64,000 nt of DNA, from NCBI GenBank assembly GCA_035578045.1, contig DATJWP010000207.1:84745-148744 (forward strand), read 5' to 3'. Made by a program: the position numbers and the translations under genes. The notes under the pieces are model-generated. The model was not told the origin of the DNA and made no database searches. It saw only the letters and a list, made by a program, of their open reading frames with translations. This DNA is from Polyangia bacterium (GTDB taxonomy: Bacteria; Myxococcota_A; Polyangia; Fen-1088). Of the stretch, positions 44,827 to 55,410 are shown piece after piece (the stretch's first letter is position 1; every line of letters begins with the position of its first letter).

Positions 44827-47211
44827 ATGGGGGCTGCCGCCACGGGCTTGCTGGGCCTGGTGCTGGCCGCGGGCTTGCCGCTGCGCACCGACCTCTCCAA
44901 CCTGTTGCCGGCGCACGAGCGATCGGTGCGCGACCTCGAGCGGATCGAGGGGCGCACGTCGGCGCTGGGCCTGGTGCTGTGTGCCGTGGCCAGCCAGGAT
45001 CCGGCGCAGCGCGCGCGGGCGGCGGCCGATCTGGTCGGACGGATCAAGCAGCTGGATCCGGCGCTGGTGGCCGACGTGATCGCGGACGACGGCGCGGCAC
45101 GGGCGTTCGTGGCCCAGCATCGCTTCCTGTTCGCGTCGCGCGCAGACCTCGATGCCGCGCGCGACGCGCTGGCGGCGCGGGTGCGGCGCGCCAAGCTGAA
45201 GGCGAACCCGCTCTACGTCTCCCTGGACGATCCCGAGGAGACGGCGCGCGACCAGGCCGACGAGCAGAAGGTCATCGATCGGCTGCGCGGTCGCCTGGCG
45301 GCGGCGGAAGGGTCGGACGCGCAGCCCCACGCCATGGTCTCGCGCGATGGGCGGACCCAGGTCCTGATCGTCCAGGCGGCGTTCCCTTCGGCATCGGTCT
45401 CGATGGGCGAGCGGCTGGTCGCGGCGCTCGCCACCACCCTGGAGGCGGCCGGGCGCGCGGCCGGCCCCGGCGTTCAGCTGGGAATGACCGAGGACGTCGT
45501 GATCGCCGTCGCCGAGCACCGGGCCATCGTGGGCGGGATGTCGCTGGCGCTGCTCCTGACGGTCCTGGTCGTCGGGGCATCGATGTTGCTCTACTTCCGC
45601 TCGGTGGGCGGGCTGTCGGCGCTGCTGGGGTCCCTGGCCGTCGGCACGCTGGCGACCTTCGGGGTGGTGCGCCTGACCGTGGGGCACCTGAACAGCGTGA
45701 CGGCGTTCCTGTCGTCGATCGTCGTCGGCAACGGCATCAACTTCGGGATCATCGTGCTGGCGCGCTACCTGGAAGAGCGCCGCACGGAGGCGCCGCACCA
45801 GGTGGCGCTGTCCCGGGCGCTGCGCGGCTCGTTCACCGGGACGCTGGCGGCGGCGACCGCGGCGGGGATCGCCTACGCGTCGCTGATCATCACCGACTTC
45901 CGCGGGTTCCGCGACTTCGGCGTGATCGGCGGGGTGGGGATGGCGCTCTGCTGGATCAGCGCCTACACCGTGCTGCCGGCGCTGCTCTCGTGGCTCGCGT
46001 CGCGCCGGCGGCTGCGGATCCGTCCGGAGCCGCCGCTGGGGCGCTGGCTGTCGCGGCTGGCGCTGGCCCGCCCCGCGATCGTGATCGCCATCGGCGCCGT
46101 GTTGACGACGGGGGCATGCGCGGTGGCGGCGCGCTACCTGGCGTCCGACCCCTTCGAGTACGACTGGCAGCGGTTGCGCTCGGACAGCGGCACGGCCAGC
46201 GACGCGCGGCGCTGGATGGCGCGCATCGACCAGGCCTTCGGCCGGCAGTTCGTGGGCGGGTTCATGGTCGGGGTCGACAGCGCGCCGCAGGCGGAGGCGG
46301 TCGAGAAGGTGCTGCGGACGCACGCCGAGGACGAGCCCGGCGTGGCGCCGTCGCAAGCGCTGTTCCGCAAGATCGGCTCGATCCAGGACTTCATCCCCGC
46401 CGACCAGCCCGTGAAGCTGGCGGTGCTGGACGAGATCAGGCGCCTGGTCGACCGCTCGACGCAGCTCATGGACAAGCAGGACGCCGCCGACCTGCAGCGC
46501 TTCCGTCCGCCCGACGGGCTGCGGCCGATCACGATCGCGGACATCCCCGAGCCGCTGGCGCGCCGCTACGTCGAGCGCCACGGCGAGCGTGGCTTCATGC
46601 TGTTCGCGAACCAGGCGTCGCGGTTCGACGGCTGGAACGGCCGCGACATGCTGGCGTTCGTCGACGCGGTCCGGCGGCTCGAGCTGCCGCCGGACACGGC
46701 CTTCGGGGGCGGCGCCTTCATCTTCGCCGACCTCCTGCAGGCCATGCGCCGGGCCGGCCCGCGCGCCACGCTGGCGGCGTCGCTGGGCGTGGCGGCGTTC
46801 ACGCTGGTCATCGTCGGCTGGGGGAGGGCCGCCGCCATCACGCTGGCCTGCCTGGTGACCGGGACCGCGCTCATGATCGCGGGGGCCGCGCTGCTGGGGT
46901 TGAAGGTGAACTTCCTGGACTTCGTGGCGCTGCCGATCACGCTGGGCATCGGCGTCGACTACGCGGTCAACGTGGTCGCGCGGGCGCGCGCCGCGGGGGC
47001 GGGCGACCTGGGCAGCATCCTGTCCACCACGGGCGGCGCCGTGGTGCTCTGCTCCTGGACGACCACGGTTGGCTACGCGTCGTTGCTGCTCTCTTCCAAC
47101 GCCGGCATCCGGTCGTTCGGCATCACGGCGATCCTGGGCGAAGCGACCTGTCTGGTGGCGGCCCTGGTGCTGGCCCCAGCGTTGCTGCGCGCCGCAGGTC
47201 CCCGCGGATGA
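44827..47211 (+). CDS. MMPL/RND-superfamily transporter (two 6-TM bundles, sterol-sensing-domain-like)
   Basis: Two homologous halves, each with a TM cluster (SLALLLTVLVVGASMLLYF... and AAFTLVIVGWGRAAAITLACLVTG...) separated by a soluble loop, typical of MMPL/HpnN-type lipid exporters. Confidence 0.8.
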   Translation: MGAAATGLLGLVLAAGLPLRTDLSNLLPAHERSVRDLERIEGRTSALGLVLCAVASQDPAQRARAAADLVGRIKQLDPALVADVIADDGAARAFVAQHRFLFASRADLDAARDALAARVRRAKLKANPLYVSLDDPEETARDQADEQKVIDRLRGRLAAAEGSDAQPHAMVSRDGRTQVLIVQAAFPSASVSMGERLVAALATTLEAAGRAAGPGVQLGMTEDVVIAVAEHRAIVGGMSLALLLTVLVVGASMLLYFRSVGGLSALLGSLAVGTLATFGVVRLTVGHLNSVTAFLSSIVVGNGINFGIIVLARYLEERRTEAPHQVALSRALRGSFTGTLAAATAAGIAYASLIITDFRGFRDFGVIGGVGMALCWISAYTVLPALLSWLASRRRLRIRPEPPLGRWLSRLALARPAIVIAIGAVLTTGACAVAARYLASDPFEYDWQRLRSDSGTASDARRWMARIDQAFGRQFVGGFMVGVDSAPQAEAVEKVLRTHAEDEPGVAPSQALFRKIGSIQDFIPADQPVKLAVLDEIRRLVDRSTQLMDKQDAADLQRFRPPDGLRPITIADIPEPLARRYVERHGERGFMLFANQASRFDGWNGRDMLAFVDAVRRLELPPDTAFGGGAFIFADLLQAMRRAGPRATLAASLGVAAFTLVIVGWGRAAAITLACLVTGTALMIAGAALLGLKVNFLDFVALPITLGIGVDYAVNVVARARAAGAGDLGSILSTTGGAVVLCSWTTTVGYASLLLSSNAGIRSFGITAILGEATCLVAALVLAPALLRAAGPRG

Positions 47212-48208
47212 GCAGGAACACCGTGCCGGCGGCGATCCAGAACAGCTCCTTGGCCCGCTTGACCAGGATCAGGGCGGTCCCGGCGGCCACCGGGTTGGGC
47301 AGCCCCATCTGGCGCAGCAGCAGGATGATGGCGGCGTCCTGAACGCCCAGCCCCGCCGGCAGGAAGAACACGATCACGCGCAGGAGCGAGCCGAGCGCGT
47401 CCAGCGCCAGCACCGGCCCGATGGGGAGCGGCAGCCGCAGGCAGCGGACGATGATCAAGGTCTCGATCCCCTCCATCAGCCACTCGAGGAAGAACGCCAG
47501 GAGTGGCCGCCAGCGGCGCGCGGCCGGCGCCGCGAAGAACGCCCGCGCCTCGCTGTCGATCTGCGCGAACCCGCGCTCGCGCTCGGCGATGGCGCGCCGG
47601 AGCCGCAGGATCGGGATCTTCTGCAGCAGGGCCGCGATCCGGCTGGCGATGGCGGCGTGTCGCAACGAGGCGAGCAGGAGCCAGCCCAGCAAGCCCATGG
47701 CCACTGCGCACGCGGCCGCGCCCAGGGCGGGCAGGGAGAACGGCGAGCCGCCGGCCGCCTCCGCGTCGAGGGCGGCCCACACGGCGGCCAGCGCCAGGTA
47801 GGCGCCGTCGGTCGCGACCAGGTAGCCCTTGGTCAGCGCCAGGCTGGCCACGGCGCGGGGCAGGGGCACCCCGGCGCGCCGGTTGAGCAGCGCCATCTTG
47901 GCCGCCTCGCCGGCCACCGAGCCGCCCGGCAGCAGCAGGACCAGCGCCTCGACCGAGAGGCGCAGCTCCAGCATCCGCACCCAGCGGACCCGCGTCCCCA
48001 GCGCCAGCAAGATGCCGCCCCAGCCGGCGGCGTCCAGCCCCATCGCGACCAGCGTCGGCACCACCACCAGCCCCAGCGGCCAGCCGACGCGGCGGATCAG
48101 CGCCAGGGCCTGGCGAAGGTCGTGGCCCCGGATGAGGCGCGACAGCGCCAGCAGCGCCAGCAGCAACAGGAAGGCCCGGACCAGCGCCGCTCGGCGGCGG
48201 GCGTTCAT
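47123..48208 (-). CDS. Lysylphosphatidylglycerol-synthase-TM-region family (flippase-like, UPF0104) membrane protein
   Basis: Eight predicted TM helices, with the conserved Arg/Lys-rich start and the GxxxG-rich helices typical of PF03706. The start abuts the upstream gene stop (48211). The 3' end overlaps the convergent MMPL gene by about 90 nt. Confidence 0.6.
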   Translation of the reverse strand: MNARRRAALVRAFLLLLALLALSRLIRGHDLRQALALIRRVGWPLGLVVVPTLVAMGLDAAGWGGILLALGTRVRWVRMLELRLSVEALVLLLPGGSVAGEAAKMALLNRRAGVPLPRAVASLALTKGYLVATDGAYLALAAVWAALDAEAAGGSPFSLPALGAAACAVAMGLLGWLLLASLRHAAIASRIAALLQKIPILRLRRAIAERERGFAQIDSEARAFFAAPAARRWRPLLAFFLEWLMEGIETLIIVRCLRLPLPIGPVLALDALGSLLRVIVFFLPAGLGVQDAAIILLLRQMGLPNPVAAGTALILVKRAKELFWIAAGTVFLLIRGDLRRAATLGPAPGPPPDRSLRPGSP

Positions 48209-54565: not shown

Positions 54566-55410
54566 TGGCGGGCCTCGGCGCGCGCTCCGGCGACCGGGCG
54601 CAGGGTCTGAAGCTCATCGATGTGTCGGGACATCCAGCTGCTCCCGTGGTGGGCCGCGTTCAGCGCCCGCAGCTCCGGGCGCGCGTCGAGGAGCGCGACG
54701 ATCTCCTCGACCGAGAAGGGGAACCTGTCCGGCCGGTGCAGCGCCTGGAACACCTCGGCGATCAGCGTCAGGTCTTCCTCGTAGTCCAGCGTCAAGCGGT
54801 GGGTGGCCGACAGATCGCGGCCGGAGGGCCAGACCAGGTTGCGGAGCCTGAAGCGGTCGGGCTGATCCCAGATGAAGGGTGTCGTGTGCTCGCGCTGGAA
54901 GGCGCGGGTGGCCAGACACCAGGCCTCCTCCAGCGCGTCGAAGCGGATCACCTCGACGTCGTTGCCGTCCGGCCAGGTGGCCGGGTGAAGGTTGCCGACG
55001 TAGGCGTCGTCGGGGTAGGTGCGGCGAAATTCCGCGACCACCATATCGACGACACGCGGGTCGATGAGCGGGCAATCCGACGGGATCTTGACCACCGCGT
55101 CGGCCTGTCGGGCGCGGCCCACCTTCAGGTGGCGGTCCAGCAGGTCGGTCGGATGCCCCGCCACGCTGGCCACGCCCAGCTGGTCGCAGAGCGCGCGGAT
55201 CGGCTGGTCGATCGGAAGATAGGTGGTCGCGACGACCAGCTCGTCCAGCTGGATGGCCGCTCGCAACCGATCGATCATCCAGGAGAGGACAGGGCGACCG
55301 CCGATCGGCCTCAGCACCTTTCCCGGCAGGCGCGTCGATCCCATCCGCGCCTGAACGACGGCGACCACCTTCGCGTTCAATCCATTTTCGGTCTCGCGCG
55401 CGGCGAGCAT
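54562..55410 (-). CDS. SpsF/NeuA-like cytidylyltransferase (CMP-ulosonic acid synthetase family, CTP_transf_3)
   Basis: N-terminal VVAVVQARMGSTRLPGKVL (conserved Arg/Lys CTP-binding loop). Length and pattern match acylneuraminate cytidylyltransferase-like enzymes. First gene of the operon. Confidence 0.75.
   Translation of the reverse strand: MLAARETENGLNAKVVAVVQARMGSTRLPGKVLRPIGGRPVLSWMIDRLRAAIQLDELVVATTYLPIDQPIRALCDQLGVASVAGHPTDLLDRHLKVGRARQADAVVKIPSDCPLIDPRVVDMVVAEFRRTYPDDAYVGNLHPATWPDGNDVEVIRFDALEEAWCLATRAFQREHTTPFIWDQPDRFRLRNLVWPSGRDLSATHRLTLDYEEDLTLIAEVFQALHRPDRFPFSVEEIVALLDARPELRALNAAHHGSSWMSRHIDELQTLRPVAGARAEARQ

Follow-up and report, generated by a model that had tools for sequence, protein, structure and literature searches.

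An uncharacterised gene cluster shared by several bacterial phyla and a candidate pathway from amino-ulosonic acid to membrane lipid

Introduction

A minus-strand operon in a Polyangia (Myxococcota) MAG places a NeuB-like synthase, a phosphatase and a cytidylyltransferase together with a split transketolase, an aminotransferase, an SDR and membrane proteins, and raises the question of what the encoded enzymes make together and where the product ends up. The locus was analysed within a 64,000-nt stretch of the source contig, hereafter the window, starting from an earlier note that had listed nine genes and proposed a CMP-ulosonate pathway coupled to lipid modification.

Results

The operon and its overlooked tenth gene

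Domain searches found all nine minus-strand genes to be real, with ORFs of the claimed families at the claimed positions (Table 1), and gene calls made independently for the source contig (L083) match the operon ORFs. The list was nevertheless incomplete, as it overlooked a tenth core gene, here called UNK397. The tight packing was borne out as well, with operon genes either overlapping or separated by 2-11 nt. The first three junctions, between the cytidylyltransferase, the two transketolase subunits (TK-N and TK-C) and the aminotransferase, are 4-nt overlaps, the aminotransferase and SDR genes overlap by 14 nt and the SDR and HAD phosphatase genes by 7-16 nt, and the HAD and NeuB genes either overlap by 4 nt or lie 11 nt apart, according to which start is chosen. 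The gap from NeuB to FA_hydroxylase is 10 nt, and that from FA_hydroxylase to the LPG_synthase_TM gene, previously given as 3 nt, measures 2 nt. No terminator-like or promoter-like sites were found within the operon on its own strand, and an overlapping ORF in another frame of the NeuB region (48972-50021) has no family match. The probable promoter region, bounded by the stop of an OmpA-family gene and the ATG of the cytidylyltransferase, is visibly AT-richer; neither a sigma-70 consensus nor an Rfam match was found in it.

Table 1 Features of the locus, with positions in the window and principal family matches.
Feature	Position	Strand	Family match or remark
UNK397, membrane-anchored GT-B-fold protein, predicted CMP-sugar:lipid transferase	43544..44737	-	no Pfam family
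HpnN-like MMPL/RND transporter, clade-specific accessory gene	44827..47211	+	PF03176, 86 bits
LPG_synthase_TM (MprF-flippase-like, HpnL-like) membrane protein	47123..48208	-	PF03706, 81 bits
Membrane di-iron FA_hydroxylase-family oxygenase	48211..49023	-	PF04116, 101 bits
Short NeuB-family PEP-condensing ulosonate synthase without AFP/SAF domain	49034..49981	-	NeuB PF03102, 251 bits
KdsC / Kdn-9-P-phosphatase-type HAD phosphatase	49978..50592	-	TIGR01670, 126 bits (cut-off 107, passed)
SDR, sugar-acid dehydrogenase-like	50577..51410	-	adh_short_C2, 166 bits
Class-III (GSA-aminomutase-like) PLP aminotransferase	51397..52785	-	Aminotran_3 PF00202, 155 bits
Split transketolase, C-terminal (pyrimidine-binding + C) subunit	52782..53714	-	Transket_pyr PF02779 + Transketolase_C PF02780
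Split transketolase, N-terminal (ThDP-binding) subunit	53711..54565	-	Transketolase_N PF00456, 92.1 bits
SpsF/KdsB-like cytidylyltransferase, predicted CMP-ulosonate synthetase	54562..55410	-	CTP_transf_3 PF02348, 82.7 bits
Intergenic region, 123 nt, probable promoter region	55411..55533	-	upstream of operon

Conservation across phyla and gene fusions

The operon is part of an uncharacterised cluster that comprises about ten genes and is kept across several phyla, namely Myxococcota, Bacteroidota (including Ignavibacteria and Kapaibacteria), Acidobacteriota, Gemmatimonadota and Fibrobacterota, and no description of it was found in the literature. It is present in cultured organisms as well, among them Chitinophaga rupis and Sorangium sp. 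So ce726 (L025). The conserved order runs from the LPG_synthase_TM protein through UNK397, cytidylyltransferase, TK-N, TK-C, aminotransferase, SDR, HAD phosphatase and NeuB-like synthase to the FA_hydroxylase, and since the core set recurs in that order in 51 of the 59 informative loci (genome loci with enough flanking sequence) from several phyla, the arrangement is far beyond chance.

Gene fusions bind the cluster further. In-frame fusions join TK-C to the aminotransferase at six loci (L002, L004, L005, L012, L026 and L030), and the aminotransferase is fused to the SDR at three Gemmatimonadales loci (L041, L047 and L060), which links the soluble enzymes to one another. The membrane proteins are likewise tied by fusions, as an LPG_synthase_TM domain precedes UNK397 in a single, MprF-like chain in P0229, P0361, P0368 and P0370 (representatives of 50%-identity clusters) and an FA_hydroxylase is joined to UNK397 in P0206; a weak FA_desaturase domain is also fused to one UNK397 homologue. 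The proposal that the membrane genes belong with the operon thus holds, given their 10- and 2-nt gaps, their cross-phylum synteny and these fusions to the GT-B protein of the cluster.

The soluble enzymes

As had been suggested, the synthase belongs to the NeuB family; it is not KdsA, with no KdsA or DAHP-synthase family among its Pfam and NCBIfam matches. It is nearest to SpsE and a short Leptospira NeuB, lacks the C-terminal antifreeze-like (AFP) domain and falls below the NeuB and PseI equivalog cut-offs (TIGR03569, 248 versus 400 bits; PseI, 198 versus 340). Residues equivalent to E25, K53, Q55, K129, S132, S154, Y186, S213, H215 and H236 of the Neisseria meningitidis enzyme are invariant in 65 orthologues, whereas E134 is replaced by Ser/Thr and D214 by Gly. 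The HAD phosphatase, in which a DVDGV motif is seen, exceeds the cut-off of the KdsC-subfamily model TIGR01670 (Table 1) but scores 138 bits against the KDN-9-P phosphatase model (cut-off 180) and 136.5 against KdsC (cut-off 208); its gene is missing at about ten otherwise complete loci. The cytidylyltransferase, syntenic at 55 loci, lies below all KdsB and PseF equivalog cut-offs in NCBIfam (KdsB, 61 bits versus 255), and its best solved relative is 6oew, a 'cytidylyltransferase' (117 bits; KdsB, 38 bits).

The two transketolase subunits find their best PDB matches in the split-chain transketolase of Carboxydothermus hydrogenoformans (TK-N in 6yak, 167 bits) and in 6yaj (TK-C, 160 bits), and in some Polyangiaceae a cluster-embedded full-length transketolase takes the place of the split pair. 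Because of this substitution, the co-travel with the cluster across phyla and the six aminotransferase fusions, the transketolase is predicted to be dedicated to the pathway. The aminotransferase reaches 364 bits against NCBIfam PRK06209, below the cut-off of 486, with GSA aminomutases as best PDB matches (about 200 bits), and the NCBIfam models nearest to the SDR are gluconate 5-dehydrogenase and glucose 1-dehydrogenase subfamilies, none reaching its cut-off.

The membrane proteins and UNK397

The FA_hydroxylase carries the invariant His-box motifs HDLYIYLFHRLQH, HEAHH and HRWHH and scores 112 bits against the OlsE model (cut-off 475). Orthologues of about 60% identity are also solitary at about nine loci, where sugar genes are absent within 10 kb. 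The LPG_synthase_TM protein had been counted with it as a lipid-modifying enzyme, a label that does not suit its flippase-like domain; it scores 70 bits against HpnL (TIGR03476, cut-off 196). It was detected in about 32 of about 55 complete loci, and a homologue lies directly upstream of UNK397 at at least 32 loci. In C. rupis and L052, both without LPG_synthase_TM, an SMR-family gene follows the FA_hydroxylase, and the flippase role therefore appears replaceable by non-homologous genes. A PAP2_3 lipid phosphotransferase/phosphatase-family gene adjoins the cluster in Gemmatimonadales loci and L001.

The flanking MMPL exporter pointed out previously is present (246 bits against HpnN TIGR03480, cut-off 752), but it is convergent with the operon, its 3′ end overlapping that of the LPG_synthase_TM gene by 89 nt, and is conserved only among the closest Polyangia relatives. 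MMPL genes were detected in very few cluster loci, lying inside the cluster only in L001/L050, L005 and L083; in L008 and L017 a divergent MMPL gene adjoins it.

UNK397 belongs to a small, isolated family that numbers 452 representatives among 1.84 billion (E <= 1e-3), and its N-terminal TM helix is absent from many homologues, such as the 339-aa protein of C. rupis. Its neighbours in fold space include the CMP-releasing enzymes TagF, TarL, Bcs3 and a polysialyltransferase. Pfam (E up to 0.01) gives only a weak Glyco_trans_4_4 match, and the NCBIfam matches (E up to 1) comprise only TIGR04396 'surface carbohydrate biosynthesis protein', a Tannerella BFO_1060-family glycosyltransferase, both weak, and one glycosyltransferase equivalog, with no epimerase family among them.

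Discussion

The combination of CTP_transf_3, NeuB and KdsC-type phosphatase is the signature of CMP-ulosonate pathways such as the Kdo, Kdn and Neu5Ac-9-P routes. The favoured reading, to which we give about even odds and which is in line with the proposal of the earlier note, is that the cluster is a self-contained system in which a CMP-amino-ulosonic acid is made, put on a membrane lipid and flipped outward. The dedicated transketolase, the aminotransferase and the SDR would act consecutively on central sugar phosphates to give an amino-aldose phosphate, which the short NeuB-family synthase, judging from its family and conserved catalytic residues, would condense with PEP to an amino-3-deoxy-ulosonate phosphate. 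The phosphatase would then strip the phosphate and the cytidylyltransferase form the CMP-sugar. At the cytoplasmic face UNK397 may place the sugar acid on an acceptor lipid, while the FA_hydroxylase would modify the same lipid, possibly making the acceptor hydroxyl, and the LPG_synthase_TM protein would flip the product to the outer leaflet much as MprF does with lysyl-PG. In the Polyangia clade the HpnN-like transporter may carry it on to the outer membrane. The order of the transketolase, aminotransferase and SDR steps, the structure of the sugar and the lipid acceptor are here inferred from the genes. In favour of this reading are the conserved gene order, the fusions, the invariant catalytic residues of the synthase and the CMP-releasing enzymes among the fold neighbours of UNK397. 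Against it count the many UNK397 homologues that lack the TM helix, the solitary FA_hydroxylase orthologues and the incomplete distribution of LPG_synthase_TM and MMPL genes, and the acceptor might just as well be a polyprenol carrier as a final glycolipid.

Alternatively, the same soluble pathway might supply an ulosonic acid for attachment to an undecaprenyl-(P)P-linked intermediate, which would be flipped and would deliver the sugar to LPS, glycoprotein or exopolysaccharide, so that no stand-alone glycolipid is formed. This is unlikely, although several observations favour it: the SMR gene that replaces LPG_synthase_TM belongs to the family of ArnE/F, the Und-P-Ara4N flippase, UNK397 weakly matches TIGR04396 and the BFO_1060 family, GT4 glycosyltransferase genes lie near the cluster at 7 loci, and a trio of short NeuB, SpsF-like cytidylyltransferase and SDR is also found in Leptospira borgpetersenii, at a locus with many glycan-biosynthesis genes (methyltransferases, DegT aminotransferase, WbqC and an ABC transporter). 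However, the conserved genes of the cluster include no GT-C/ArnT-like transferase, O-antigen ligase, Wzx/Wzy or oligosaccharyltransferase, and the strictly syntenic, sometimes fused, membrane di-iron hydroxylase would be left without a role. The presence of the cluster in Sorangium also speaks against such a route and disfavours lipid A as a universal acceptor, since the reference strain of the genus is reported to be without lipopolysaccharide in the title of a paper (Keck et al. 2011) that PMC11324152 cites.

It is improbable that UNK397 is instead a NeuC-like (hydrolysing) NDP-sugar 2-epimerase feeding the synthase in a soluble variant of CMP-sialic-acid synthesis, with the transferase elsewhere and the membrane genes loosely associated. 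The lack of epimerase matches and the isolation of the family argue against it, the repeated fusion with a flippase-like TM domain and with a membrane hydroxylase would be inexplicable if the protein were a soluble epimerase, and the transketolase, aminotransferase, SDR and phosphatase would be roleless in a cluster left without a transferase. The AFP domain, which touches ManNAc in the N. meningitidis NeuB structure, is also missing from the synthase of the cluster. Somewhat more doubtful still is a head group consisting of a CDP-linked amino-polyol phosphate from the transketolase-transaminase pair, transferred by UNK397 onto a lipid or polymer as a TagF-style phosphodiester, as it leaves no role for the invariant, catalytically intact synthase and the phosphatase and disregards the CMP-ulosonate signature. 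Finally, the reading as an ordinary Kdo/LPS-core locus, beside which housekeeping transketolase genes happen to lie, is effectively ruled out by family assignments and fusions: KdsC and KdsB models are the best named NCBIfam matches of the phosphatase and cytidylyltransferase, but the KdsB cut-offs are widely missed, the synthase is of the NeuB family, kdsD, waaA and lpx genes are absent from the window, and both the transketolase-aminotransferase fusions and the ten-gene synteny across phyla argue against it.

If the proposed glycolipid system is correct, its product would represent a new type of surface lipid in bacteria.

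Organization and conservation of the gene cluster

The nine minus-strand genes that the earlier note had read as one operon are all present at 47123-55410, and every family assignment made for them is upheld by Pfam and NCBIfam. The tight packing holds as well, with neighbouring genes overlapping or lying at most 10-11 nt apart, and gene calls made independently for the source contig concur. Third-position GC served as the filter for real genes against the many spurious ORFs of the window, which has a G+C content of ~72%; the 123-nt spacer upstream of the first operon gene has a lower one. 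An ORF at 48972-50021 was discarded as the NeuB gene, being in the wrong frame and without a family match, and the true gene is the one listed in the table, with a product of 315 aa here and of 310 aa according to an independent gene caller, which places the start later. No Rfam match was found anywhere in the window.

Genes of the cluster and its immediate surroundings in the window, with family matches (bit score and cut-off where available)
Gene	Position	Strand	Family match and remarks
Cytidylyltransferase	54562-55410	-	CTP_transf_3 (PF02348), 82.7 bits, cut-off 22.6
Transketolase N subunit (TK-N)	53711-54565	-	Transketolase_N
Transketolase C subunit (TK-C)	52782-53714	-	Transket_pyr + Transketolase_C
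Class-III aminotransferase	51397-52785	-	Aminotran_3
Short-chain dehydrogenase/reductase (SDR)	50577-51410	-	SDR
KdsC-type HAD phosphatase	49978-50592	-	TIGR01670, 126.1 bits, cut-off 106.95
NeuB-like synthase	49034-49981	-	NeuB (PF03102), 251.4 bits, gathering cut-off 22.1
Membrane di-iron oxygenase	48211-49023	-	FA_hydroxylase (PF04116), 101.4 bits, cut-off 31
Flippase-like membrane protein	47123-48208	-	LPG_synthase_TM (PF03706), 81.4 bits, cut-off 33.4
HpnN-like MMPL gene	44827-47211	+	Convergent with operon; 89-nt overlap with end of the flippase-like gene
UNK397	43544-44737	-	No Pfam family; GT-B fold in AlphaFold model
MsnO8-family luciferase-like monooxygenase	42512-43525	-	TIGR03558, 426 bits, above cut-off; 18 nt downstream of UNK397
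OmpA-family gene	55534-56106	-	Directly upstream of operon
Haem_bd-domain gene	56180-56644	+	Divergent from OmpA-family gene
Ribosomal_S30AE + cold-shock domain gene	57114-57698	-	Ribosome hibernation factor domain with C-terminal CSD

The comparison set consisted of homologue neighbourhoods together with a one-genome-per-species scan, in which the window proteins were followed by tblastn and ORF clustering. The canonical gene order across these loci is LPG_synthase_TM, UNK397, cytidylyltransferase, TK-N, TK-C, aminotransferase, SDR, HAD phosphatase, NeuB and FA_hydroxylase, which makes UNK397 a tenth member of the core. In the window the MMPL gene has been placed between the LPG_synthase_TM gene and UNK397 by a clade-specific rearrangement, and because this insertion separates the two, UNK397 was overlooked in the earlier note. 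The synteny itself is extensive: UNK397, the cytidylyltransferase, the aminotransferase, the SDR, NeuB and the hydroxylase occur together in 51 of the 59 loci that have at least 7.5 kb of sequence upstream of the hydroxylase. These carriers belong to the Myxococcota (Polyangia, Haliangiales and others), the Bacteroidota (Ignavibacteria, Kapaibacteria, Melioribacteraceae and others), the Vicinamibacteria and Thermoanaerobaculia of the Acidobacteriota, the Gemmatimonadales and the Fibrobacteria, and include the cultured Sorangium sp. So ce726 (locus L025) and Chitinophaga rupis DSM 21039, whose locus is on FOBB01000003.1 at 180906-201925, the cluster proteins of the latter being 45-64% identical to those of the window. 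The flanking MMPL exporter, which the earlier note had taken as a pointer to a lipid-linked product, does adjoin the operon, but its association with the cluster is limited to the closest relatives (L001/L050, L005, L083).

Among the other neighbours, the MsnO8-family gene, on the same strand as UNK397, is not conserved in other loci, nor are the OmpA-family and Haem_bd-domain genes conserved with the cluster. The domain pairing in the ribosome hibernation factor-like gene is unusual. Further away, a MocR-type GntR/aminotransferase regulator (59335-60852, plus strand) adjoins a 682-aa minus-strand ORF with a C-terminal Pyridox_ox_2 domain (58651-60852 region) that has probably been called too long and runs over the regulator gene, and at 26254-30156 a 1067-aa adenylate/guanylate cyclase with an AAA_16 ATPase and a zinc-ribbon adjoins a convergent Crp-family cNMP-binding regulator.

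A predicted pathway to a CMP-activated amino-ulosonic acid

A NeuB-family synthase, a KdsC-type phosphatase and a CTP_transf_3 cytidylyltransferase together are the signature of CMP-ulosonate synthesis, as in the Kdo, Kdn and Neu5Ac-9-P routes. The synthase of the window belongs clearly to NeuB, since Pfam lists that family alone and NCBIfam the NeuB and PseI models alone, with no KdsA or DAHP-synthase family among the matches; KdsA is a member of the Pfam DAHP_synth_1 family. The protein stays below the equivalog cut-offs (247.9 against 399.65 bits for TIGR03569 and 198.3 against 340.25 bits for PseI, TIGR03586) and is truncated: the match runs from position 1 to 278 of a 329-position profile, and neither the Pfam/NCBIfam scan nor the alignment shows a C-terminal AFP/SAF domain. 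It aligns most closely with SpsE of Bacillus subtilis (158 bits) and with a Leptospira NeuB of 290 aa (6ncs, 129 bits). Aligned to 2wqp, the Neisseria meningitidis NeuB residues Lys53, Lys129, Ser132, Ser154, Ser213, His215 and His236, numbered as in the published structure, correspond to Lys67, Lys145, Ser148, Ser170, Ser227, His229 and His250, and these equivalents of the metal- and PEP-binding His pair and Lys/Ser residues are invariant across 65 orthologues. The equivalent of Glu134 is a Ser or Thr, and that of Asp214 a Gly. An ordinary Kdo/LPS-core locus is refuted: the synthase belongs to NeuB instead of KdsA, and the window yielded no lpx, waa or kdsD genes.

The phosphatase falls into the KdsC/YrbI-type HAD subfamily, with the nucleophile motif DxDGV in ITDVDGVLTDG. 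With the KdsC and KDN-9-P phosphatase models it scores equally, and below both equivalog cut-offs (136.5 bits with a cut-off of 208 and 137.8 bits with a cut-off of 180, respectively). This similar scoring implies that the substrate of the NeuB-like enzyme is phosphorylated. The cytidylyltransferase reaches at most 61 bits with the KdsB and PseF equivalogs against cut-offs of at least 155; its closest solved structure is 6oew (117 bits), for which the depositors name no function, compared to 38 bits for KdsB.

The two transketolase genes encode a split-chain enzyme, with Transketolase_N on one chain and Transket_pyr and Transketolase_C on the next, and the best PDB relatives, 6yak (167 bits) and 6yaj (160 bits), are of the characterised split-chain enzyme from Carboxydothermus hydrogenoformans. 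The aminotransferase has the class-III fold, with the SK(A) lysine in CFSKAV, and its nearest relatives are GSA aminomutases; the scores fall below the cut-offs (PRK06209, 364 against 486; TIGR00713, 243 against 527), which speaks against a HemL, and the gene lies in a sugar operon and not in a haem context. TK-C and the aminotransferase form a single in-frame ORF in six loci (L002, L004, L005, L012, L026, L030), and the aminotransferase and the SDR in three Gemmatimonadales loci (L041, L047, L060). From these fusions it follows that the transketolase, the aminotransferase and the SDR constitute a consecutive sub-pathway. The two kinds of fusion occur in different lineages.

A Polyangiaceae variant of the cluster (L015, L029, L037, L040, L068) is missing the two transketolase subunit genes that elsewhere separate the cytidylyltransferase gene from that of the aminotransferase, and carries a divergent single-chain transketolase of ~680-726 aa beside the cluster, either directly after the hydroxylase (L029, L037, L040 and L015, in the last at 10587-12767) or upstream on the opposite strand (L068). 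The earlier note had raised the prospect of a housekeeping transketolase. Fusion to the pathway-specific aminotransferase argues that it is not one, and along with the cluster-wide synteny and the full-length substitute in Polyangiaceae points indirectly to a dedicated enzyme, as judged from sequence comparison and from 64 kb of the host genome. Most simply, the trio would supply an aminated aldose phosphate.

The early aminoshikimate (AHBA) route of rifamycin biosynthesis (RifL/K/M/N, Orf15, RifH) uses an oxidoreductase, an aminotransferase, a phosphatase and a transketolase, followed by a PEP-condensing synthase. The same reaction classes would here lead to an aminated aldose phosphate and its condensation with PEP, which is an analogy only. 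The window SDR is not of the GFO/IDH type, the aminotransferase is class III and not DegT/AHBA-synthase, and the synthase is a NeuB and not a DAHP synthase. An AHBA-like secondary metabolite is rejected as the product, since cyclase and dehydratase are missing, whereas the cluster does encode a cytidylyltransferase and membrane proteins. The CMP-Kdn and Neu5Ac-9-P pathways, such as that for Kdn in Bacteroides thetaiotaomicron, use a synthase that acts on a phosphorylated aldose, a KdsC-type phosphatase and a cytidylyltransferase. The window operon holds all three of these families, with its PEP-condensing NeuB protein, its HAD phosphatase of the C0 type and its CTP_transf_3 protein. In contrast to them, the window enzymes miss all equivalog cut-offs, the NeuB is shortened and altered at the Glu134 and Asp214 equivalents, the aldose is predicted to arise from transketolase, class-III aminotransferase and SDR instead of from mannose-6-P or ManNAc-6-P, and the pathway is tied to proteins of the membrane.

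A parallel for the short NeuB is found in Leptospira borgpetersenii (locus L085, CP000350.1, 1349428-1370276), where the 6ncs NeuB, also devoid of the AFP domain, shares an operon with a CTP_transf_3 protein and an SDR. An aldo-keto reductase and a protein of 453 aa without annotation are encoded with them, and the locus further contains genes for methyltransferases, an ABC transporter, WbqC and an aminotransferase of the DegT type. Unlike the window cluster, the locus has no transketolase, class-III aminotransferase, KdsC-type phosphatase, FA_hydroxylase, LPG_synthase_TM or UNK397. It seems to encode a further pathway to a ulosonic acid that has yet to be characterised. The idea that Leptospira rfb loci contain the same transketolase/aminotransferase module was not confirmed at L085, which shares only the short NeuB, the cytidylyltransferase and the SDR with the cluster.

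UNK397 and the membrane proteins

UNK397 is 100% identical to a hypothetical protein of Polyangia bacterium, which places the window in a MAG of the Myxococcota, has no assigned Pfam family and matches weakly to TIGR04396, a surface carbohydrate biosynthesis protein family, and to BFO_1060-family glycosyltransferases. Its family is small and stands apart from others; out of 1.84 billion, 452 representatives reach E ≤ 1e-3. In the AlphaFold model (pLDDT 87.7) an N-terminal transmembrane helix is followed by a GT-B fold. Several homologues are fused to membrane domains: an LPG_synthase_TM domain in P0229 and in the representatives P0361, P0368 and P0370 (690-713 aa), FA_hydroxylase in P0206, and a weak FA_desaturase domain in one further homologue.

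The flippase-like protein has no C-terminal synthase domain and stays below the equivalogs for bifunctional MprF (25.7 against 600) and HpnL (70 against 196); no solved homologue was found for it by PDB sequence searches, which also returned nothing useful for the hydroxylase. Its setting resembles that of MprF, the lysyl-phosphatidylglycerol synthase/flippase, in that the LPG_synthase_TM part stands beside, and often N-terminally fused to, a cytoplasmic domain that transfers the head group, as is predicted for UNK397, and both would follow the logic of altering a lipid in the inner leaflet before it is flipped. The partner in the cluster is a GT-B-fold protein with a predicted CMP-sugar donor, whereas in MprF it is an aminoacyl-tRNA-dependent C-terminal synthase domain. 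In C. rupis and in L052 the LPG_synthase_TM gene is missing, and a 121-aa membrane protein of the SMR family (PF00893), the family of ArnE/F, is encoded directly after the hydroxylase in C. rupis (L087, 18124-18489), with an SMR-family gene also in L052 (10817-11119). The SMR protein may be a non-homologous flippase replacement, and its presence where LPG_synthase_TM is absent suggests that flipping is the conserved role. Directly after the cluster in five Gemmatimonadales loci (L041, at 10819-11760, L047, L053, L056, L060) and in the closest Polyangia relative (L001, 12073-13065) lies a gene for a PAP2_3 (PF14378) membrane protein, which is absent from the window.

In the di-iron oxygenase, His98, His106, His110, His119, His122, His123, His177, His197, His200 and His201 are invariant in 16 sequences, and the OlsE equivalog is missed (112 against 475). 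Close relatives number in the thousands in metagenomes. Stand-alone orthologues (~56-62% identity) with no sugar genes within 10 kb were found at L021, which has two copies, L042, L043, L044, L065, L067, L072, L073 and L079, two Thermochlorobacter (Chlorobi) MAGs being among such loci; with about nine of them, the lipid substrate of the hydroxylase may thus exist independently of the sugar. A hopanoid cluster, suggested by the HpnL- and HpnN-like matches, was rejected, as the scores are far below cut-off (246 against 752 and 134 against 1100 for the MMPL gene with HpnN), the window holds no squalene-hopene cyclase (shc) or hpn genes, and the MMPL gene is not conserved with the cluster.

Proposed product and alternative explanations

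The mechanism that best accommodates these observations, and to which we give an even chance, is that a CMP-activated amino-ulosonic acid would be transferred by UNK397 to a lipid acceptor in the membrane and the product then flipped, as in MprF. A lipid acceptor followed by flipping is argued for by the physical link of the GT-B protein with both a flippase-like domain and a membrane di-iron oxygenase, by the exchange of the flippase for a non-homologous gene in some organisms, and by the PAP2_3 or MMPL genes that sometimes adjoin. Amino-ulosonic acids on bacterial lipids have precedents in the Kdo8N of Shewanella, which sits on lipid A and is made by the oxidase KdnB and the aminotransferase KdnA, both from other enzyme families than the window enzymes, and in an aminoglycosphingolipid of Chlorobium limicola, the sugar of which is presumably neuraminic acid. 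The existence of the latter lipid is cited in PMC11762602. The Chlorobi matches in our scan (L042, L043) are hydroxylase-only loci. Lipid A is disfavoured as a universal target, since Sorangium carries the cluster and its reference strain is reported to be without lipopolysaccharide, according to the title of Keck et al. 2011 as cited in PMC11324152.

The acceptor may instead be a polyprenol carrier, from which the sugar would pass to LPS, protein or EPS. Such a route would fit with the SMR substitution, with the weak similarity of UNK397 to glycosyltransferases and with the analogous Leptospira locus; however, it leaves the hydroxylase unexplained, and no GT-C, ligase or Wzx/Wzy is conserved in the cluster. 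UNK397 may also be a NeuC-like epimerase, as proposed by the fold ranking and the automatic UniProt name, and a few homologues have weak precomputed PF02350 matches; for UNK397 itself neither Epimerase_2 in Pfam (E up to 0.01) nor any epimerase family in NCBIfam (E up to 1) was found, and an epimerase would account neither for the fusions to membrane domains nor for the four enzymes left without a role. A head group of CDP-linked amino-polyol phosphate, transferred in the manner of TagF, would leave NeuB and the phosphatase unexplained.

Taking the lipid-linked amino-ulosonic acid further, the cluster could, somewhat short of an even probability, specify a kind of bacterial membrane lipid not recognised before, namely a 'ganglioside-like' glycolipid that bears an amino-ulosonic acid and is possibly built on a hydroxylated ceramide or aminolipid, with the sugar provided by a dedicated transketolase, transaminase and dehydrogenase, an orphan GT-B protein acting in an MprF-like synthase/flippase arrangement, and conservation among soil bacteria of the Myxococcota, Bacteroidota, Acidobacteriota, Gemmatimonadota and Fibrobacterota. 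Ceramide as the acceptor is a speculation, prompted by oxygenase families of the sphingolipid type and by the resemblance of the PAP2_3 gene to AUR1.

Each part is of a known kind, be it the CMP-ulosonate synthesis, the MprF-like flippase, the His-box lipid oxygenase or the GT-B transferase; their combination, with a transketolase-based feed, a truncated NeuB subfamily and an orphan GT-B family, appears to be new, as does the breadth of its conservation across phyla, and no description of it was found in a full-text literature collection that covers few subscription journals. With C. rupis and Sorangium sp. So ce726 as cultured carriers, the prediction is open to direct testing. If true, a function would be assigned to the orphan GT-B family, the MprF design would gain a second, sugar-based example of a head-group synthase coupled to a flippase, and new enzymes for ulosonic-acid chemistry would become available. 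The sugar route, in which transketolase, class-III transaminase and SDR feed a truncated NeuB, would lie outside the known nonulosonic and octulosonic acid pathways, and many abundant soil and sediment bacteria would bear an undescribed acidic amino-sugar lipid on their surface.
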